DNA of 53,935 nucleotides from Bradymonadia bacterium (GTDB taxonomy: Bacteria; Myxococcota_A; Bradymonadia; UBA7976; UBA1532): assembly GCA_046290225.1 (NCBI GenBank), contig JBKAGE010000009.1:1-53935 (forward strand), written 5' to 3'. Position 1 is the stretch's first letter; the number at the start of each line of letters is the position of its first letter. The position numbers and the translations under genes were made by a program. Below the pieces are notes generated by a model. That model was not told where the DNA came from. It searched no databases and worked only from the letters and a program-made list of their open reading frames with translations. Positions 12,113-53,851 of the stretch are shown one piece after another.

Positions 12113-12937
12113 ATGAAGACTCGCTTTTTGCCGATCATGGCCCTCTTCTGTGCTTCCTCTGCTGCCGCCGGTGGCTGGACTCAGCCCGCCGGTGACGCCT
12201 ACCTGAAGGTCTGGCACCGCAGCCTCGTGGGCAACGCCGCGTACACAGCCGATGGTGAGGTGCTCGATCTGTCGGAGACCTACATCGACCAGCTCACCCA
12301 GTTCTATGGCGAGGTGGGCCTCACCGATCAGCTGACCCTCGTGTTCCAGGGGGCGCCGGTGGGCTACGCCGCGTACGGCGACGAGAGCACCACCTATGTG
12401 GGGGCGACGGGGGCCGGCCTGCGAAGTGGCATCGCCGTCGGCAAGCTCCGTCTCGCCGTGGAGGGCCGCTACAGCTACGCCCCCGACGTGGGAGAAGATG
12501 TGCTCGCTGCAGAGCTGGTCGATGATGTGGCCATCACCTACGTGCCCACAGTGGAGACCCACGCGATCCAAGGGGATCTCCAAGCAGGGTACCCGCTCTC
12601 CTTTGGCTGGGTGACAGGGAACGTGGGGTACCGCTGGCACAGCCGCGAGGGCCTCGACGCGGCCATCGTGGGCTTCGCTCAGCTGGGCTGGCAGGCGTCG
12701 AAGACGGTTCAAGCCGATGTGCACTTCAACCTCTGGGAGCCTCTGGGCAGCGTCGAGGTGACCAACGTGGCCGGCGCGGGGCAGACCCGCTACCTGGGCC
12801 TGGGTTTCGGCGGCAGCTGGTGGCTCAACGAGGGTTTTGCGCTCAACGCGGGGCTCGAGGGGGTGGTGTACGCGGAGAGCAACGCGGCGACCCCGACGCT
12901 TACGTTGGGCGTCGAACATCGCGGCAGCTGGTGGTGA
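12113..12937 (+). CDS. Secreted hypothetical protein, probable outer-membrane beta-barrel
   Basis: Signal peptide followed by GGWTQP; alternating amphipathic strands; aromatic C-terminus. Confidence 0.6.
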   Translation: MKTRFLPIMALFCASSAAAGGWTQPAGDAYLKVWHRSLVGNAAYTADGEVLDLSETYIDQLTQFYGEVGLTDQLTLVFQGAPVGYAAYGDESTTYVGATGAGLRSGIAVGKLRLAVEGRYSYAPDVGEDVLAAELVDDVAITYVPTVETHAIQGDLQAGYPLSFGWVTGNVGYRWHSREGLDAAIVGFAQLGWQASKTVQADVHFNLWEPLGSVEVTNVAGAGQTRYLGLGFGGSWWLNEGFALNAGLEGVVYAESNAATPTLTLGVEHRGSWW

Positions 12938-12984
12938 GTCACTGCTCGTGGAGCAGCCGTGGTGCTGAGCTGAATTGGGCTTAA

Positions 12985-13501
12985 GCGTAGGTGATGGCTG
13001 GGCCCTTGTAGGCAGTCATCGCTTCGCTCTGACTGCGTAGGCAGCTCTGTCGGCCGGCCTTCGGCCCGCCTTGGAGCTGCGTACACGTCGGCACACTCGC
13101 TGGCGCGAGCAGGCCTCCGGGTAGGCAGGGTCGCTCAATGCTGACGCATTGATTGCTCGCTCCCCTGCGTAAAAAGTCAGTTCTGGTGTGACTTTGCACT
13201 GATTCCGGCGCTGCTGGGGCTTTCGCCGAGCATTCACACTCAGAGGCTTGCAGGTTCGCGGTAGGTCGAATCCCGGCGGGGTTCAGCAACGAGATACAGA
13301 AGAAGCTCTTTACGCAGGGGAGCGAGCGAAAAGGGCGAAGCCCTGAGCGACCCTGCCTACCCGGAGGGGTGTCCGCGCAAGCGGATGCCCGAACGTGTAC
13401 GCGCCAGACGAGGTTGCCCGAAGGGCGACCGAAGGCCGGGCGCCTACGCAGGCAGAGCGCAGCGATGACTGCCTACAAAGGCTCAGCCACCGCTTGCATC
13501 A
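12985..13501. repeat. Palindromic intergenic element, family A copy 1 (REP/REPIN-like)
   Basis: Nested inverted repeats, e.g. perfect 24 bp 13114-13137/13344-13367 and 19 bp 13155-13173/13309-13327, around a ~135 bp core; inverted homolog at 29617-30136. Confidence 0.92.
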
Positions 13502-13589
13502 TTGACCATCCAAGCTTTCCAGCCCTTGCGCACAGATTCTTTTGTGTGCAAACGATCTGACCTCCAATCGTCACCACGAAACGAGGTCC

Positions 13590-15026
13590 ATGGGCACCAT
13601 CGCCGCCAGCTTCATCGCGTGTCTGCTCGTCTTCACTCTCATCGGGGTGATGTCGTCCAAGGCTAAACAGACCACCACCGAAGACTACCTCGTCGCCAGC
13701 CGGAACATCCCACCGTGGCTTGTGGCGCTCTCAGCTGTATCGACCAACAACAGCGGATACATGTTCGTGGGCCTCATCGGCTTCACCTATGCCTATGGGT
13801 TGTCGTCCATCTGGCTCTCACTCGGGTGGCTCGTCGGTGACTTCCTGGCGTGGTTCGTCGTGCACAAGCCCTTGAGAGAGTCTTCAGGCACTGCCAACGT
13901 CAGCAGCATCCCCGGGTTCCTCGCCCACGATCGACAGCAGGGCAACTCCCGGCTCATCGCCGTGATCGCCGGGTTGATGACGCTGGCCTTCCTCAGCGTC
14001 TACGCCGCCGCGCAGCTCAAGGCCGGCAGCAAGGCCCTGCACGTTATGTTCGGGTGGGAAGAGAGCCTCGGCGCCATCATCGGCGCCGTGCTCGTCGTGG
14101 TTTATTGCTTCTCCGGTGGCATCCGCGCCTCCATCTGGACCGACGCCGCCCAGTCCATGGTCATGATCGGCGCCATGTTGATGCTCGTCGTCGTCGTGGC
14201 CATGGAGTTCGGTGGACCTGATGAGTTGTTGGCGCAGCTCGAAGCCATCGATCCCCAGCTCGTCACCCTCACACCCCCCGATGCCGAGTGGGGCCTCGCC
14301 GTCTACATCCTCGGGTGGCTCGCCGCGGGCATTGCCGTCGTGGGGCAGCCTCACATCATGATCCGCACCATGACCCTCGATGATCCGGCCAAGATGGGCC
14401 GTACGCGGAACATCTACTTCGCCTGGTACTTGCCCTTCACGATCCTCGCCATCCTCGCAGGCCTCTACAGCCGTGTGTTCTTCGAGGATGGGGGCATCAC
14501 CTCATCCTTCGACGCCGAGCTGGCTTTGCCCACCATGGCCATGGGGTTGCTGCCCGAGGTCCTTGTGGGCTTGATCCTCGCCGCCCTCTTCGCCGCCACC
14601 ATGTCCACCGCCGACTCCCAGTTGCTCTCGTGCTCCGCAGCGATCACCCAGGACGTTGCTCCCACGCTCAACCGCAGCTATTTCGCTTCGAAGATGGCCA
14701 CCATCGGGGTCACTCTGCTGGCCCTCGCCGTGGCCCTGTTCGGATCAGGCAATGTGTTCACCCTCGTGGTGCTGGCGTGGTCCAGCCTTGGGGCAGGGCT
14801 CGGGCCGTTGATGTTCGTCAGGGCCAAGGGCAGATCTGTGTCGCCGGCCCTCGGCGGGACCATGATCGTGGCCGGAGTTGCCACGGTGCTGGTCTGGAAG
14901 TACGTGCTGGAGTGGGGCGGCGGCCTTTACGAGGTCCTGCCGGGCATGCTGGCGGGTTTCCTGATTTACGCAGTGGGCAGCGCGATGTCGCCTCAGCCGG
15001 TCAAAACGGCTTCTTCTCGAGCCTGA
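13590..15026 (+). CDS. Sodium:solute symporter (PutP-like)
   Basis: DYLVASR, SAVSTNNSGYMFVG, GGIRASIWTD, GQPHI and AATMSTADSQLL motifs; many TM helices. Confidence 0.92.
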   Translation: MGTIAASFIACLLVFTLIGVMSSKAKQTTTEDYLVASRNIPPWLVALSAVSTNNSGYMFVGLIGFTYAYGLSSIWLSLGWLVGDFLAWFVVHKPLRESSGTANVSSIPGFLAHDRQQGNSRLIAVIAGLMTLAFLSVYAAAQLKAGSKALHVMFGWEESLGAIIGAVLVVVYCFSGGIRASIWTDAAQSMVMIGAMLMLVVVVAMEFGGPDELLAQLEAIDPQLVTLTPPDAEWGLAVYILGWLAAGIAVVGQPHIMIRTMTLDDPAKMGRTRNIYFAWYLPFTILAILAGLYSRVFFEDGGITSSFDAELALPTMAMGLLPEVLVGLILAALFAATMSTADSQLLSCSAAITQDVAPTLNRSYFASKMATIGVTLLALAVALFGSGNVFTLVVLAWSSLGAGLGPLMFVRAKGRSVSPALGGTMIVAGVATVLVWKYVLEWGGGLYEVLPGMLAGFLIYAVGSAMSPQPVKTASSRA

Positions 15027-16159: not shown

Positions 16160-16187
16160 ACTCTGAGCTGTGAAACGTAGAAGGGGG

Positions 16188-16584
16188 GCGGACGGCCGTG
16201 CTTGGGCACCGCCTGTAGCGGACGACCGCGCTGCGCGCCGTCTGTAGCGGACGCCTGCTGCGGCTTCGCCTTGCAGAGCTGTAGCGGACGCCGAGTCTGC
16301 CTTCGGCAGCCTGAGCTGTAGCTTTCTAAGAGACTTTTGGTGTGCCTGGTGGGTTTCTCAACCCAGGTAGGGGCTTACGCCGGAACTGGTGTGTCAGGGG
16401 CCAACAGCATTGGCGGTAGATGAACCCACACACGCCCCCCTCAACTGATCTTCAAAAAAGCTACAGGGAATTTGCCGTAGGCAAATGAGCGTCCGCTACA
16501 GCTTTCGCCGAAGGCGAGGCGTCCGCTACAGGCGCAGCGCAGCTGGGCCGTCCGCTACAGGCGGCCCGAAGGGCGGCCGTCCGC
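16188..16584. repeat. Palindromic intergenic element, family B copy 1 (CTGTAGCGGACG arrays)
   Basis: CTGTAGCGGACG at 16213, 16242, 16279 (plus partials); inverse CGTCCGCTACAG at 16490, 16520, 16549; hairpin spacers; ~135 bp core; second copy at 36813-37206. Confidence 0.93.
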
Positions 16585-16666
16585 TCACACTGCGTGGCAT
16601 GTGTGGCACACCTCCTGCTCTCCGAGCGCGGGCCTGACAACAGGCCAGATGTGGATCGGAGTCCCC

Positions 16667-29616: not shown

Positions 29617-30136
29617 TGATGCATGTCATGGCTGGGCCCTGGTAGGCAGTCATCGTTGCGCTCTGCCTGCGTAGGCGCCGTGCCTTCGGTCGCCCTGCGG
29701 GCAACCTCGTCTGGCGCGTACACGTTCGGGCATCCGCTTGCGCGGAACCCCTCCGGGTAGGCAGGGTCGCTCAATGCTAACGCATTGTTTGCTCGCTCCC
29801 CTGCGTAAAGAGCTTCTTCTGTCTCTTGTTGCTGATGCCCGCCGGGATTCGACCTACCGCGAACCTGCAAGCCCCTGCGTCTCAACGCTCGGTGTTAGCC
29901 CCAACAGCATTGGAAACAGCACACAGCCACACCAGAACTGGCTTTTTACGCAGGGGAGCGAGCAAACAATGCGTCAGCATTGAGCGACCCTGCCTACCCG
30001 GAGGCCTGCTCGCGCCAGCGAGTGTGCCGACGTGTACGCGACCGACGAGGCGGCCCGAAGGGCTGCCGAAGACCGGGCGCCTACGCAGGCAGAGCGCAGC
30101 GATGACTGCCTACAAAGGCCCAGCCATCACCTTCGC
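29617..30136. repeat. Palindromic intergenic element, family A copy 2 (inverted relative to copy 1)
   Basis: Same nested stems as 12985-13501, with the core in reverse-complement orientation. Confidence 0.92.
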
Positions 30137-30291: not shown

Positions 30292-30933
30292 ATGCGTCGC
30301 CTGTGTACCCTGCTCATCGCCCTCGCCACCTTGATCCCCACCTTCGCCAGCGCATGCTGGTCCGGCATCTACCTGAGCGGTGAGCGACTCACCATCCGCG
30401 TCGCCGAAGACGACCTGCAATGGACCCCCGAGCTCGCTCAGAAGATGGGCGCTTTGCTCATACAAGGGGAAGCCTTGTTACCGCACGGCGTACAGGTCGA
30501 GGTCGATTTTGGTCAGGCCGAGATCTGCGAGGGCCCTGACCATTGCCGCATCCTCGAAGGCGTCACCCTCGACAACCTGCTCAGCCGGCTCGCCCTCGAG
30601 ATGAAGCTGCCTGCCAGGGCCATCAAAGAGGTGCAGGCCATGGAGACGCCTGTCTATGTCGTGCGGATCCCCACCGATGACGTGGCCCACGTCGCTCGGC
30701 AGATCAACGCAGACGACGCCTACCTGCACGGGAACATGGAGGTCGGTGACTTCCCCGGGCTCACAGCCCAGGCCTTGCCGGTGGTGAAAGATGAGATTTG
30801 GGTGGGCACCTTCATCGACAAGTTCGACGCCGAGAAGGCCGCTTGGGCGCTGATCAAGATGGGGCACAGCCCTGTGGTCCATCAGCTCGGTACCCCCTTG
30901 AAGAAGCACCAAGCCGTGAGTCACAAGCGCTGA
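30292..30933 (+). CDS. Secreted hypothetical protein, possible C-terminal SPOR-like motif
   Basis: RBS AAGGAG; signal peptide ending ASA; 'IWVGTFIDKFDAEKAAWAL'. Confidence 0.65.
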   Translation: MRRLCTLLIALATLIPTFASACWSGIYLSGERLTIRVAEDDLQWTPELAQKMGALLIQGEALLPHGVQVEVDFGQAEICEGPDHCRILEGVTLDNLLSRLALEMKLPARAIKEVQAMETPVYVVRIPTDDVAHVARQINADDAYLHGNMEVGDFPGLTAQALPVVKDEIWVGTFIDKFDAEKAAWALIKMGHSPVVHQLGTPLKKHQAVSHKR

Positions 30934-31222
30934 GAGGTCCTAACAAAACAGCTCCCGTCGCCAGGGGCGCAGCGCTGTTGAGTGCAGCCAGACGAAAGTA
31001 CCCCACGGGCAACTCTTCGCTCCGTCGGCTTCGCCTTTGTCGACTTCGAGTTGTCTGGCAAAGCCAGATACCATCGTCTGTCTGCACTCAGCACTTCGCG
31101 AGACATCCAAAACCGTCCTCGACGATGCTTTAAAGGCGCTAGCCGGCATCGCCTGCGGGTGTTCTGGATGTCTCACTCGTACCTCACGCCCCTGGCTCGG
31201 TCCGTCGTTCTGTTAGGACCTC
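30934..31222. mobile_element. MITE-like element with terminal inverted repeats and TGA target duplication
   Basis: Termini GAGGTCCTAACAAAAC / GTTCTGTTAGGACCTC (one mismatch); TGA at 30931-30933 and 31223-31225; long internal stems; no credible ORF. Confidence 0.8.
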
Positions 31223-31238
31223 TGAGTCTCGGCAGGGC

Positions 31239-36809: not shown

Positions 36810-36812
36810 GGA

Positions 36813-37206
36813 GCGGACGGCCGCCCTTCGGGCCGCCTGTAGCGGACGGTCATCGCCTTACGGCGACAGCCTGTAGCGGACGCCTGCTTCGGCTTCGCCT
36901 TGCAGAGCTGTAGCGGACGCCGAGTCTGCCTCCGGCAGCCTGAGCTGTAGCTTTTTAGAGAGTTATGGTGTGTCTGGTGGGCTTCTCAACCCAGATTGGG
37001 GCTTACGCCGGAACTGGTGCGTCATTGGGCCACAACGTTCGCGGTAGATGAGTCAACGCCCCCAAACTGATCTTCAAAAAGCTACAGGGAATTTGCCGTA
37101 GGCAAATGAGCGTCCGCTACAGCTCTCGCCGAAGGCGAGGCGTCCGCTACAGACGGCGCGTAACGCGGTCGTCCGCTACAGGCGGTGCGCAAGCACGGCC
37201 GTCCGC
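36813..37206. repeat. Palindromic intergenic element, family B copy 2
   Basis: CTGTAGCGGACG at 36837, 36871, 36908; inverse copies at 37111, 37141, 37170; fills almost the whole gap between two convergent stop codons. Confidence 0.93.
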
Positions 37207-38145
37207 TCAGTACGTCGGCTCGACGTAACCCTCACCGAATTTGCTCTTCCCTTCCGCCTCGTCTGCTGCGGCGGCCGCGTCAGCCTGTGACTTGGTGATC
37301 CAGGCGGCGCTCGCTGCCGGGGCCAGTGCCACGAGAGAGGTCACCGCCACCGCTGGCAGCGTCTTGGGCACCAGGGTGGCCACTGCCGCGGCCAGGGGCG
37401 CCGTGCTCAACAAGATCATGCTGGTCACCGGCAGGCCCGGATAGGCGTAGTGGTGGGCGTAGACCAGTACCCCGATGTAGCCCGTGAGCAGCACCGCCAC
37501 TCCACTGTGGCCGGCCTTCAGGTGAGGCCATCGCCAGCTGATGAGGGCCGCCATGCCGGACGCTGCGGCGAGGGCGCCGAGCAGCTGCGCCAGCTTGGCG
37601 CTCGAGCCCAGCAGGGCGGTGACTGCGGCGCCGATGCTCGCCACGCAGATGGCGGCGAAGATGGCCGGAGAGGCCGCCCGGACCTGCGCGCGATCCACCC
37701 CGAGCCAGAGCAGCAACGCCAGGCCTGCAGGCGCACCGACGTGCAGCAGCAAATCACTGGCCGTGGTCCATGTCTGCTCGATGCTCGTGGCCAGGGTCAG
37801 ATAGATGATCGCCCCAAGGCCGATGGCGATGGCCGGCATCACCCGAGCGATCCCTTGAGATTCCTCGCCGCGATCGAGGGCGGCGAAGAGCCCGAAGATG
37901 CCCAGCAGCAAGAAGGGCAGCCAGGCGCCACCATCCGTGATGGGCCAGTCGGGCAGCCCACCGGTGATGCCGAAGTAAGATCCGGCCATGCCCAGGGCGA
38001 TGCCCGCGGCGAGAGGCCAGCGCCGAGCGCGGGACCCCCGACCGCCGGTGAAGTGGCCCACGAGGGCGAACACGATCACAGAGAAGGCGGGCAGGATCGC
38101 AGTGAAGATCGCGCCCTTGATTTGCAGCGAGGTGGTGGCATCCAT
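37207..38145 (-). CDS. Hypothetical integral membrane protein
   Basis: Many hydrophobic helices; RBS GAGGAG. Confidence 0.75.
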   Translation of the reverse strand: MDATTSLQIKGAIFTAILPAFSVIVFALVGHFTGGRGSRARRWPLAAGIALGMAGSYFGITGGLPDWPITDGGAWLPFLLLGIFGLFAALDRGEESQGIARVMPAIAIGLGAIIYLTLATSIEQTWTTASDLLLHVGAPAGLALLLWLGVDRAQVRAASPAIFAAICVASIGAAVTALLGSSAKLAQLLGALAAASGMAALISWRWPHLKAGHSGVAVLLTGYIGVLVYAHHYAYPGLPVTSMILLSTAPLAAAVATLVPKTLPAVAVTSLVALAPAASAAWITKSQADAAAAADEAEGKSKFGEGYVEPTY

Positions 38146-43211: not shown

Positions 43212-43266
43212 TCAGCGCGCAGGAGATTCAGCGCGCAGGAGATTCAGCGCGCAGGGGACTCAGCGC
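43212..43266. repeat. 16-bp tandem repeat (TCAGCGCGCAGGAGAT, three copies plus a partial)
   Basis: Units start at 43212, 43228 and 43244; the partial at 43260 coincides with the stop codon of the convergent gene. Confidence 0.9.
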
Positions 43267-46200
43267 CGGCGGCGGCGCAGCCCCAGGGCCCCGAGGGCCA
43301 TCAGCATGCCGAAGAGCAGACCAGCAGGGCCGCCGCGGGCCGCCGAGGTGGAGCAACTCGCGGGGTTCGAGCCGGCCACGAAGCCCGGATCGTCCTGACC
43401 CGGCACCCCACCGTCGGGGTTCCCGCCGCCGTTGGGCACCAGCGGATCATCATCCGTGCCATCGTCGATGCCGTCGCCGTCGGTGTCGGGGTTCAGGGGA
43501 TCAGTCTCCCCAGGGTCCACCTCACCGTTGGCGTTCTCGTCTTCCACACCATCAGGCAGGCCGTCGCCATCGGTGTCGGGCACGCGGGGGTCAGTCTCAC
43601 CGTCGTCCACCTCACCGTTGGCGTTCTCGTCTTCCACACCATCAGGCAGCTGATCGCCGTCGGTGTCGGGGTTGTTCGGGTCCGTCTCGCCCGTATCGAA
43701 GTTGCCGTTGCCGTTCTCGTCTTCGATGCCGTCGGGCAGGCCATCGTCGTCGGAATCGGGATCGAGGGGATCAGTGGGGTTGTTGCCGTTCACCTCGGGG
43801 CCATCGTTGATGCCGTCGCCGTCAGTGTCGGGGTTCAAGGGGTCAGTCTCGCCCTCGTCCACCTCGCCATTGCGGTTCACATCTTCTTCGCCGTCGGGCA
43901 GGCCGTCGTCGTCGGTATCGGGGTTGTTCGGATCGGTCTCGTCGTCGTCCACCTCACCGTCGCCGTCCACATCCTCGAAGCCATCAGGCAGGCCGTCGTC
44001 GTCGGTATCGGGGTTGTTCGGGTCCGTCTCACCCTCATCGATCATGCCGTCGGCGTCTTCGTCCTCCACGCCGTCGTCGAGGCCGTCGTCGTCGGTGTCG
44101 GGATCGAGGGGATCCGTGGGGTTGTCACCGTTCACCTCGGTGCCGTCGTCGATGCCGTCGTCGTCGGTGTCGCGATCATTGGGATCCGTGCCGATCTCCG
44201 TCTCTTCGAGATCCGTGAGGCCGTCACCATCGGTGTCGTTCACCACATCGTCCACGGGATCGAGGGGGTTGCGGCCGCCGTTGACCTCGCTGCCGTCAGG
44301 CTCGCCACCATCATCGGTGTCGGGGTCCCGGGGGTCGGTCTCGCCCTCGTCCACAGTGCCGTTGGCGTTCTCGTCTTCTTCGCCGTCTTCGAGACCGTCG
44401 TTGTCCGAGTCGGGATCACGGGGGTTGGTCTCCCCATCGTCTACCCGGCCGTTGCGGTTCTCGTCCTCGACACCATCAGGGATGCCGTCGTCATCAGTGT
44501 CGGGATCCCGGGGGTCAGTCTCCAGCGGATCCACCATGCCGTTGCGGTCCGTATCCTCAGTGCCGTCGGGGATGCCGTCGTTGTCGGTGTCAGGGTTGTT
44601 CGGATCAGTCTCACCCTCGTCGAGGTTGCCATCCTGGTCCGCGTCCTCGACGCCGTCGGGGATACCATCGTCATCGGTGTCGGGATCAGTGGGATCCGTG
44701 GGGTTCGAGGCAGTGGTCTCGGTGCCGTCGGGGATGCCGTCGTCATCAGTGTCGGGATCATCCGGATCAGTCTCACCGGGGTCGACCATGCCATTGCCGT
44801 TGGGATCTTCCCGGTCATCGGGCAGGCCGTCGCCGTCGCGATCACCACTGCCGCCCATGTCGTCGTCGGGGTTGTCCACGGGGTTGCGGCCGCCCTCGAC
44901 CTCGCTGCCGTCGAGCTCGCCACCATCGTCTGTGTCGGGATCTCGGGGGTTGGTCTCCTGACCCTGGTCGAAGTTGCCGTCGCCGTTGGCGTCTTCCTCG
45001 CCGTCGGTGAGGCCATCATCGTCAGTGTCCTGGTCGAGGGGGTTCGTGGGGTTGTTGCCGTCCACCTCGATGCCGTCGGTGAGGCCATCACCGTCGGTGT
45101 CGGGGTTGGTCGGATCAGTCTCGCCCTCGTCCACTGCGCCGTCTTCGTCGCGGTCCTCGCGGCCATCTTGCAGGCCATCACCATCAGAGTCGGGGTTGCG
45201 GGGATCGGTGCCCGCCTCGCCGTTCACCTCAATGCCGTCGTTGAGGCCATCGTCGTCGGTGTCGCGATCAGCAGGGTTGGTCTCGTCTTCGTCGAGGTTA
45301 CCGTCGTTGTCGGCGTCCTCGACACCATCGAGCAGACCATCGCCGTCGGTGTCACCTCGAAGCGGATCAGTGGGGTTGTTGCCATTCACTTCGACCCCGT
45401 CGGTGAGATCGTCACCGTCAGTGTCGGGGTTGTTCGGGTCGGTCTCCCCAGGATCGATGTCACCCGTGCGGTTCAGATCTTCCTGGCCATCCTGAAGGCC
45501 ATCATCGTCGGTGTCGGGATCGAGGGGGTTGGTGGGGTTGCCGCCAAGCACCTCAGTGCCGTCGTTGAGGCCGTCGTTGTCGGAGTCGGGATCGAGGGGA
45601 TCCGTCTCGTCCGGATCGCGAACACCATCGCGGTTGGCGTCTTCCTCGCCATCCTCGAGGCCATCGTCGTCGGAATCGGGATCAGTGGGATCTGTCTCGT
45701 CTGGGTCACGATTGCCGTCGCGATCACGGTCCTCGGTGCCGTCGGGGATGCCGTCGCCGTCGGTGTCGGGGTTGTTCGGATCGGTCTCTCCAGGATCGAC
45801 CATGCCGTTGCCGTTGCGATCCTCGATGGGATCCGGGAGGCCGTCGCCGTCGGTGTCGAAGATCTCGTCCTCGCCGCCGACGTCGATCACGTTCACCGGC
45901 GCGTCGCACTGACGACACAGCGCGCGATCGGTGAGGGCCCGGGCACCAAAGACCCAGGTGTCGTAGATTTGGGGAATGTCACGGGCCTGGCCACCCTCCG
46001 GGGGCACGCGGCGGGGCTGCACCCAGCGACGACGCTGGCGGGGGATCAGACCAGAGCCTTCAGGGAGCACCTCCACAGCATCAGAGCCGTCGACGAGATC
46101 AACGTCAGTGCGGATGGGGGTGTCGTTCCAGTACATTTGCAGCGGAGAGAGCGCGCCATTGGCGCCGGCCTGCTCCGAGATCACCATGCCCTGGGCGTTG

Positions 46201-47468
46201 TCCTCGATGTCCACCATGGGCAGGTGGGTCTCGCCGGCGAGCAGGCGCAGCTGGAACCGGTACTGGCCGGGGGCCACCACCTGGCCGTTGGCGTCGGTGC
46301 CGTCCCAGGTGACGCGGTTCTCGCCGATGACGGCCTGGCCGACCATCTGGGCGTCCACCGAGCCGTCGAAGACGTTATCCTGGTTGGTGTCGACGGTGAT
46401 GCGGTATCGGCCGGCGATGTTGCTCACGAAGGTGAAGTCGCCAGTGTCCTGAATACCATCACCGTTAGGGGTGATGGTGTTGGTGCCGGCCTCGTCGTTG
46501 AACTCGACGGCATCCATCTGAGGCGCTGCCGGTGCCGCAGGGGCTGGATCGGGGTAGTTCAGGTAGATGCTGTACTGACGACGGACCGCCTGAGTGGCCC
46601 CAGCGCCATCGAAGCCACAATCGCCGGCGCCGTCGGGATCACCATCACGGCACCAGCTCTCGCTGGGGTGATCGGTGATGCCCACCTCGTTCGCCAGCAG
46701 CTGGTAGCGGAAGCCCCGCATCTGCTCGAAGTCGATGACGAAGACGTGGGCGCCGGTCGCTTCGGCGGTGGTCACGGGCGCCACCGCGAAGAAGTCGGCG
46801 TCGGTGCCATAGGCGAAGCGGTGGGCGTTGAAGAACCAGTGTTCGCTGTTGAGGCGGCCGCCGGCGGTGTCCTGGCCGTTGGCGTCGAGGACGTCGACGG
46901 CGAAGTAGCGGGTTGAACTGCCGCTGCCGATGGTGAGCGTCTCGGGCTCACCGGCGAAGTTCACCTGCCACTGACCAGGCCGATCAGCGACGAAGTCGAT
47001 GTAGTTCCCCGGGCCCGTCTGAGCGTTGCAGTAGCCTGCTGCGCCGTTGACAGCGAAGGCCTGTACACACCGCCCCTGGCCGGCCCCCCCGGCGAATGGG
47101 GCGTTGGAGCCCACGGCACGGCACTGGCCGTTGGCGCCCTCACAATCGTTGTCGTTGTTGCACAGCACGTCGACAGGCGGGGAAATCAAAATCTCCGCCC
47201 CGACTCGGTGATCGACGAGGTTCTCGTGGGCTTGCCCAGGAGACTCGTCCACCGGCACGTCGGCGTCGACGTCGGCCTCTTGTACTCCATCGTCGCTGGA
47301 GCACACGCGGATGCGCTCTCCAGCGGCTTGGATGTTGACGTTCAGAGTGCTGTTCCCCTCCAGCCCCTGACTGTTGCCGAGCTGTGGTGAGCCCTCTGGG
47401 AGTGCCCAAGCACTCACAGGCAGCAGCACGGTGGCTGTCGCCACCAAAATCCGGGCACGTGTCTTCAC
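43260..47468 (-). CDS. Large surface protein with FlgD-Ig-like domain, thrombospondin type 3-like Ca-binding repeats and a MYXO-CTERM-like tail
   Basis: Signal peptide; ITPNGDG...WDGTDANG...GQY; long run of D(T/S)DxDGxxDG.E / GETDP repeats; C-terminal Cys + TM + RRRRR. Confidence 0.9.
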
Positions 47469-53696: not shown

Positions 53697-53851
53697 GGCG
53701 CGGAGGTGGCGTTAGCCGCCGTGACGCCGGCGATCTCCCGCCCAGCTGCGACCTTTCCGTCCTCGGCGCAGCGCTGCTGCGCCTGCGGGTGAAAGCCCGC
53801 ATCTGGACGAGACCTCACCGACCTCACGACGACTGCCGCCACCTCCGCGCC
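53697..53851. other. Folded intergenic element closed by a perfect 15-bp inverted repeat
   Basis: GGCGCGGAGGTGGCG (53697-53711) / CGCCACCTCCGCGCC (53837-53851) with internal stems. Confidence 0.55.

Follow-up and report, generated by a model that had tools for sequence, protein, structure and literature searches.

Among described systems, the GTAG REPs, BIMEs and REPINs with their RAYT/TnpA-REP enzymes come closest to the repeat analyzed here, which we call family A. According to the available portions of four accounts (PMC3733652, PMC3333891, PMC3116915, PMC8266576), these repeats are extragenic, multicopy and mosaic, carry inverted GTAG-tagged hairpins, show a convergent/tandem bias, are restricted to species and leave no duplication. 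Family A shares all of these properties, the lack of a duplication being seen at one empty site. It departs from the same descriptions in its size of 500-580 nt, with four modules per arm instead of one or two 20-40-nt REPs, in its unlike side hairpins, in an oriented core common to two arm families, and in a strict G..A loop rule on the strand that does not carry GTAG. No RAYT was found with it.

Three other systems share some features with family A. TIRtrons/TIRYT, which are Y1 genes in long inverted repeats (available portions of PMC3733652), and the relatives' loci L049, L062 and L063 have long inverted arms and internal hairpins, and at relatives' IS200-like Y1 loci G..A-capped hairpins lie beside the gene. 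Unlike TIRtrons, family A has no GGGGWSAS motif in its arms as judged by eye, and no copy contains a Y1 gene. The hairpins d(GCGNAGC) and d(GCGNNAGC) at the phage G4 and ssiA priming sites and the N4 promoter, as given in part of PMC13037366, belong to the same class of loop and closing pair, including the exact GCGNAGC. At those sites the hairpins are single or few and mark an origin or promoter, whereas family A has eight or more per copy and is dispersed. Bacterial MITEs (NEMIS/Correia, ERIC, RUP and Nezha, as covered in the available portions of PMC3733652) are likewise non-coding and dispersed with terminal inverted repeats, but family A is larger and modular, its ends fade, and no target duplication is seen at the one empty site. 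Neither family A, nor a G..A loop rule for REPs, nor the presence of four-helix-bundle genes within long inverted arms is described in the literature covered, mainly main texts outside subscription journals; a related family might appear among the REP consensus figures of PMC3733652.

The window, that is, the whole stretch of 53,935 nucleotides that was analyzed (contig C9), comes from a genome of 8.58 Mb with 64% GC, assembled in 83 contigs with 99.4% completeness. Copy 1 of family A, a non-coding repeat of about 500-580 bases, lies at 12938-13521 between a 274-aa gene without a Pfam match and a sodium:solute symporter gene. The preliminary description had placed a branched rod at 12985-13501; the element is found there, but it is longer, with degenerate tails reaching approximately 12938 and 13521. 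These limits are those of a stretch absent from a related strain. A 227-base contig of run X3 matches 12861-12937 with 2 differences and 13522-13663 with 5 differences and 1 gap, with five other letters between the two parts. In it 584 bases are absent and no target duplication is visible; it is a single contig with a depth of 2.6, and the absence could be a deletion. Run X2 contained family A pieces with other module alleles. Cover of the two families A and B differs among runs X1-X3 (family A pieces but no cover of B in X2, the reverse in X3), and missing cover was not counted as evidence. Gene order at the site is not kept in eight relatives, which are therefore unusable as empty sites. No promoter- or terminator-like site was found in copy 1, an Rfam search of it gave no match, and a 102-aa frame over its left half had no Pfam match. 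Elsewhere in the window, 43260-47468 (-) encodes a 1402-aa protein with many Asp-rich repeats of 30 and 54 codons.

As with GTAG REPs, BIMEs and REPINs, family A is an extragenic, multicopy palindrome. A blastn search of the genome contigs gave 56 intergenic clusters, 36 of which cover at least 450 bases and are near-full. These 36 copies are the basis of the loop and allele counts; the other 20 are partial, chimeric, at contig ends or insert-bearing. Copy 2 lies in the window at 29617-30136 (-), inverted relative to copy 1 and 88% identical to it over 517 nt.

Each family A arm consists of four hairpin modules, from H4 (outermost) to H1 (innermost), with constant segments holding GTAG or GTAC between them; an oriented core of about 140 bases separates the two arms, and tails lie outside them. 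In copy 1, a degenerate left tail of 70 nt (12938-13007, +), whose similarity to the consensus drops outward, is followed by the left arm (13008-13170, +) with modules H4, H3, H2 and H1 and GTAG/GTAC tags at 13008, 13037, 13081 and 13121. Its G..A loops are on the - strand: GAA in H4, as the loop of a two-pair GCGNAGC mini-hairpin (13021-13027), GAA in H3 (13056-13066), GCCA in H2 (13096-13109) and GTCA in H1 (13135-13152). The oriented, non-palindromic core, common to family B, occupies 13171-13311 (+) and contains three motifs of fixed spacing at 13185-13264, a three-pair hairpin with a GAAA loop (13218-13227, -) and a fifth GTAG (13261-13264, +). The right arm (13312-13476, +) holds H1 to H4 with CTAC/GTAC at 13357, 13397, 13444 and 13473, and its G..A loops are on the + strand. 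The three right-arm hairpins named in the preliminary description are all present there: H1 with loop GAA (13332-13344), an allele unlike that of H1 on the left, H2 with GCAA (13372-13385) and H3 with GAA (13416-13426). H4 is again a two-pair GCGNAGC mini-hairpin, with loop GCA (13457-13463, +), and a degenerate right tail of 45 nt (13477-13521, +) ends the element. The left-arm loops had been described as complements of those on the right. They are complements of the G..A class, but not of the loop that they face, because facing modules usually differ.

The GTAG tags at 13008, 13037 and 13121 and the GTAC at 13081 each stand 5' of a module, in the position of the REP tag (GTAG/GTGG 0-2 nt 5' of the hairpin), and family A tags are partly able to pair into the stem. 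The REP descriptor given in the available part of PMC6006769 is a unit of 20-40 nt whose basal stem is 7-20 pairs long and paired throughout. Family A modules measure 30-50 nt, have basal stems of 4-6 pairs with internal loops, and are not compact units of that type. In the tails, the share of bases agreeing with the consensus drops within 60 nt from 0.6-0.98 to about 0.3 (93 ends), so that the outermost bases are the least conserved. Rough mapping of the tail ends gave no preferred CT. A tail profile found no free-standing tails, and the tails are therefore not a target motif.

Loops were read on the strand on which each arm is the 3' arm, in the 72 arms of the 36 copies, and 284 of 288 could be parsed. 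All of them end in A: 183 are GNA (GAA 136, GCA 43, GTA 4), 65 are GNYA, 17 are GNRA and 19 are other (CTCA 11, AAA 4, TTCA 2, ACA 1, TAA 1). The earlier observation that the loop interior varies and G...A is kept thus extends over 36 copies: 265 of 284 loops are of the C-G-closed G(N)A or G(NN)A class of the d(GCGNAGC) mini-hairpin, a count in which the copies share ancestry and are not independent. By distinct site-loop types, 20 of 26 are G..A. In the genome background, 9% of the C-G-closed triloop hairpins in genes and 24% of those between genes have GNA or TNC loops. Three main stem alleles occur at H1, three at H2 and five at H3, with the pairs kept in each; the stem covariation quoted in the preliminary description is real and is found in copy 2, on the - strand. 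Family B, with unrelated modules, keeps the same rule (121 of 151 loops G..A in 39 arms; 22 AAA). The proposed strand polarity was also confirmed. Hairpins with a stem of at least 4 pairs and a C-G-closed G..A loop numbered 3 on the + and 0 on the - strand in the right arm of copy 1, and 0 and 3 in the left arm, so that each strand has them in its 3' arm. Mirror symmetry between the strands is automatic in an inverted repeat, and only the polarity is informative; when the bases of the right arm were shuffled 20,000 times, no shuffle contained 3 such hairpins.

Judged from the loop sequences, the preference appears to be a DNA rule and unlike the RNA rule, with G-N-Y-A over G-N-R-A (65 vs 17). 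GCGNAGC and GCGNNAGC are described in the available part of PMC13037366 as extraordinarily stable as DNA and much less so as RNA, and as poor binders of SSB. On the opposite strand, a UNCG reading is impossible at H1 and H4, where the closing pair would be C-C, and has at most two pairs at H3, as judged from the alleles. At 20 tandem sites the core had the same orientation as the neighboring genes in 11 cases and the opposite one in 9. The pattern of a structured RNA, with GNRA/UNCG loops on one strand and a fixed orientation to genes, is thus not that of family A. Folding energies do not tell DNA from RNA. The DNA fold of copy 1 had z values of -17.8 and -16.5 for the two strands, with rods predicted on both, and the RNA fold had -18.8 and -17.9. 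The comparison of DNA and RNA folding suggested earlier therefore showed that both strands fold far better than shuffles, but it did not separate the two. The preliminary description had named random or RNA-type loops across many copies as the result that would speak against selection on folded single-stranded DNA. The loops were neither, and the GNRA minority, the exclusion of UNCG and the lack of a core orientation argue for such selection.

In 31 of 35 family A copies, at least two of H1-H3 are unlike alleles in the two arms, and H1 stems agree between arms in 4 copies where 11.5 were expected (p 0.003). Facing modules are unlike in 54 of 58 cases in family B as well (17 copies). The median length of the longest perfect match between the arms is 39.5 bases (range 19-167). 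Because facing modules are unlike, the predicted rod is branched: they would be left out as side hairpins while the constant segments pair across. The unlike modules may result from selection against long perfect palindromes, or they may simply descend from an ancestor whose arms already differed, with crossovers later. For neighboring modules, all four allele combinations are seen, and alleles are found in either arm. Pairwise identity of family A copies is 73-97% (mean 84%), with no identical pair, and seven short copies are, by eye, internal deletions at short shared sequences. The left and right tails of the same copy are closer to each other than tails of different copies, with similarity values of 0.84 vs 0.72, 0.59 vs 0.42 and 0.41 vs 0.33 for consecutive blocks of 14 bases. 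The difference (permutation p at most 0.0001) implies copying from arm to arm, which correction of quasi-palindromes by template switching would bring about.

A profile of the family A core finds the centers of family B. Forty columns are conserved to at least 85% in both the 36 A and the 25 B cores, and the three core motifs keep a constant spacing, with 51 exact matches of the pattern in the genome. Family B comprises about 44 genomic clusters with 3-5 hairpin modules per arm and constant GTAG linkers between them. Its two copies in the window, 16185-16590 (+) and 36810-37210 (+), have their other GTAG-tagged module arms around the homologous core, with the core motifs at 16339-16419 and 36967-37047. 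A chimera of B arm, core and A arm was found at C82:48338-48770 and one of A arm, core and third-family arm at C46:37757-38145; a partial chimera lies on C81. Closed pairs of A arms number 37, and the rods predicted for copy 1 are those of an inverted doublet that folds as one long hairpin. By eye there is no codon pattern in the core. Consensus folding of the cores gave weak structure, and most loops of the core hairpin are GNAA, a sequence that also fits GNRA. An 84-copy 16-mer resembling the core proved to be a coding repeat.

The genome also contains other repeats. Family D, at window 53697-53851, is a palindromic repeat of about 150 bases with GTTA/GTCA loops and 61 clusters; it often adjoins A copies, and its arm occurs in chimeras with the A core. 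At C36:153145-154952 (L154:646-2453), two inverted family D-like repeats enclose three small genes beside a duplicated gene end, and one of the three resembles, by eye, a small multidrug efflux (SMR) protein. A repeat of about 300 bases at window 30930-31226 (41 clusters) has sharp 40-base inverted ends, loosely resembling integron attC cores, and an apparent 3-base duplication; we take it to be like an IS5-type MITE. Insertions of a related element interrupt an A core (C34:360960-361136) and a B core (C78:372695). Hexamer-armed repeats at C50:55559-57127 and C80:28-1588 contain inserts of about 1.4 kb with 400-aa frames, which by eye are probably IS4-type insertion sequences.

Family A was found in none of the 40 relatives searched, 24 of them of the same family, and in neither the plasmid nor the phage collections. 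Family B gave only 20-45-base matches, in 12 of 112 class genomes, with E values no better than 0.001. A search of 185,579 species genomes for the core pattern gave chance matches (41 loci, all lacking arms close by, with profile scores of at most 8.6 bits), and a 19-mer search of metagenomes gave 3 matches, all in coding DNA without arms. Genes flank 42 A cores on both sides, in convergent arrangement at 19, tandem at 20 and divergent at 3, compared with 9% convergent, 64% tandem and 28% divergent in the background of 3391 gaps, both based on crude gene calls. REPs show the same convergent/tandem bias in placement (available portions of PMC3733652). No strand bias relative to GC skew was seen (21 of 40).

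The genome was also searched for candidate enzymes. No Y1 HUH transposase was detected with PF01797, NF047646 or two custom profiles built from 30 and 28 relatives' proteins, and no cognate RAYT gene flanked by the repeat was found in the 83 contigs (99.4% complete). Searches for Y1_Tnp, REP_Tyr_transpos, PDDEXK_3, Transposase_20 and DUF559 gave no match in the genome; the Y2_Tnp profile had none either, which carries no weight, as its control also matched nowhere. A GIY-YIG search returned one 625-aa frame. Of 122 long inverted repeats surveyed in the genome, 21 have large inserts, and none encloses a Y1 gene in the manner of a TIRtron. In the class, 70 of 113 genomes have a Y1 transposase. 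Of 30 IS200-like loci returned from relatives, 28 were used, one with a stop and one of a long type being left out. G..A hairpins accounted for 31 of 58 hairpins within 400 nt of the Y1 gene and for 3 of 38 further out, and occurred at 12 of 28 loci. At locus L049, inverted arms of 220 nt surround the Y1 gene with the polarity of family A. None of the relatives' Y1 arms was homologous to A or B, the core profile gave one weak match of 10.9 bits on those loci, and GTAG is on the G..A strand in these arms, opposite to family A. As a group, L049, L051, L053, L061, L062 and L063 are solitary IS200-like genes in inverted arms of 80-240 bases, several with G..A mini-hairpins and GTAG/TTAG feet.

A pair of reverse transcriptases on C79 was also considered and rejected. 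A 40-base A remnant lies in the gap between the gene ends, which we take as ordinary convergent placement, and the core profile has no match there. The convergent genes (C79:178175-181442; L150, L151) encode 540 and 453 aa, each downstream of a SWIM-finger-like gene, and a 537-base non-coding stretch precedes one of them. Presumably they resemble myxobacterial retron-type enzymes.

Family A could be the gene-less form of a cassette with a four-helix-bundle gene, whose spread needs that protein and host enzymes and no HUH transposase. We consider this doubtful. The genome has two PF05635 genes, and both lie in long inverted arms. One, frameshifted, stands in the place of the core in an A-armed copy (C77:107005-107859) and is the only gene found inside A arms; the other is in a hexamer-armed family (C72). 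The gene type is also the sole one found to replace an A core, inverted repeats flank several of the relatives' four-helix-bundle genes, and a Y1 enzyme was not found. On the other hand, the A-armed gene represents 1 of 56 matches and is frameshifted, the relatives' arms are short, of hexamer or heptamer type and not A-like, and free exchange of arms around cores makes gene capture an easy explanation. The family has, to our knowledge, no known catalytic activity. The protein (TIGR02436, 23S rRNA IVP) is presumably Avd-like. An extended form of the same idea, to which we would give a similarly small chance, would unite families A and B in a HUH-free mobile system, with the 140-base core as functional site, the arms as an SSB-resistant branched single strand and the four-helix-bundle protein as its own factor. 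If true, this would reveal a new way for DNA to move and, for the first time, a concrete role of a widespread protein family whose function is unknown. The two loci of this genome (L020:1239-2093 and L021:1149-2244) have arms of different repeat families. In the relative G008 (L027, L031, L033), near-identical four-helix-bundle cassettes occur at four places, several of them 5'-truncated, which suggests that they moved recently.

Family A might also be a chromosomal element kept by the host, in which the core binds a host protein, the arms adopt a cruciform or single-strand structure where transcription units end, and copies spread and mix through recombination alone. BIME-1 of E. coli has a central protein site. 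The core motifs and spacing common to two families with unrelated arms (40 columns at 85% or more), the strong bias to gene 3' ends and the free shuffling of modules agree with such a role. It is nevertheless unlikely, given that family A was not found in 40 relatives, and given a core with chance matches only in 185,579 species genomes, the empty copy 1 site in a close strain and the fact that recombination alone does not readily make new sites. Selection of the structure as RNA, for example as a transcribed stabilizer or a terminator-like fold, is very improbable. RNA is predicted to fold as strongly as DNA (z -18.8, -17.9), copies lie downstream of genes, and the GNAA of the core loop is also a GNRA form, but triloops and GNYA dominate, the core is unoriented to genes, and neither an Rfam match nor a promoter- or terminator-like site was found. 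Movement as double-stranded DNA, in the manner of a classical MITE whose terminal inverted repeats are bound by a DDE transposase, has no better prospect. It would account for long terminal inverted repeats on non-coding, dispersed copies, and other small repeats of the genome look MITE-like (window 30930-31226). The outermost bases of family A are, however, the least conserved, the reverse of the sharp ends of DDE elements; no duplication is seen at the empty site, and the loop rule would remain unexplained.

With copy number, loop rule, covarying stems, mosaicism, a shared core and one empty site as observations, we favor, with a probability of roughly 55%, an orphan REPIN/BIME-like element that was moved as folded single-stranded DNA by a Y1 enzyme acting in trans, now lost or unassembled. 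In such a process, a strand would become single, probably at the replication fork, and the G..A-capped mini-hairpins would fold first. The constant GTAG-containing arm segments would pair next, and the unlike modules would protrude, giving the predicted branched rod on either strand. From what is known of the family, a Y1 HUH tyrosine transposase would most likely recognize the tagged hairpins in trans, nick loosely defined sites in the tails and move the strand without target duplication. Its gene would have been lost from the lineage or lie outside the assembly. Modules would be shuffled, arms swapped around the shared core and one tail copied onto the other by recombination, both among copies and from arm to arm, as the observed patterns suggest. 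Single-strand folding in vivo, the enzyme and its cut sites belong to the inferred part of this outline.

The REPIN/BIME-like reading is favored by the loop rule with 3-5 covarying stem alleles at H1-H3, by the same rule in family B, and by GCGNAGC and GCGNNAGC being far more stable as DNA than RNA and poor SSB binders (PMC13037366, in part). Four tags per arm with GTAG on the strand of the pyrimidine loops recall many GTAG REPs, in which GTAG is on the strand with pyrimidine loops (loops TY; available portions of PMC3733652), and the reverse tags C/T-G-C-C-T-A-C are near the iREPII cut consensus of E. coli TnpA-REP (PMC3333891, in part). REP-like placement, an empty allele without duplication, fading ends, the G..A hairpins beside relatives' IS200-like Y1 genes and the arms of L049 point in the same direction. 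As described in the available portions of PMC3333891 and PMC8266576, TnpA-REP of E. coli needs GTAG, acts on single strands only, cleaves at CT, at variable distances to either side, and is able to capture neighboring genes; by analogy, such behavior would fit the faded ends, missing duplication and cargo of family A. Against the same reading are the failure to detect a Y1 gene in this nearly complete genome, and relatives' Y1 genes without A/B flanks and with GTAG on the opposite strand. The tags are partly in stems, the basal stems have 4-6 instead of 7-20 pairs, and there is no CT preference in a rough mapping and no strand bias. With a maximum identity of 97% and no identical copies, movement need not be ongoing. 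The empty site is one contig with a depth of 2.6 and maybe a deletion, and the only gene in the arms is not a transposase. Since no cognate enzyme was found and the basal stem is not of the compact type, family A was not classed as REP/REPIN; most likely it is a variant of that kind with no enzyme in hand, to which it adds the modular arms, the shared core and the empty site.

Family A bears on the spread of REP-type repeats and on the level, DNA or RNA, at which their folds act. It offers an unusually clean signature of selection on DNA folding, in the form of many independent stem alleles under one non-RNA loop rule. Its module swaps and arm-core chimeras are a natural set that separates the roles of arm and core, and a site of presence and absence is available in addition. 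If the enzyme is truly absent, these would be repeats that persist or move without a RAYT.
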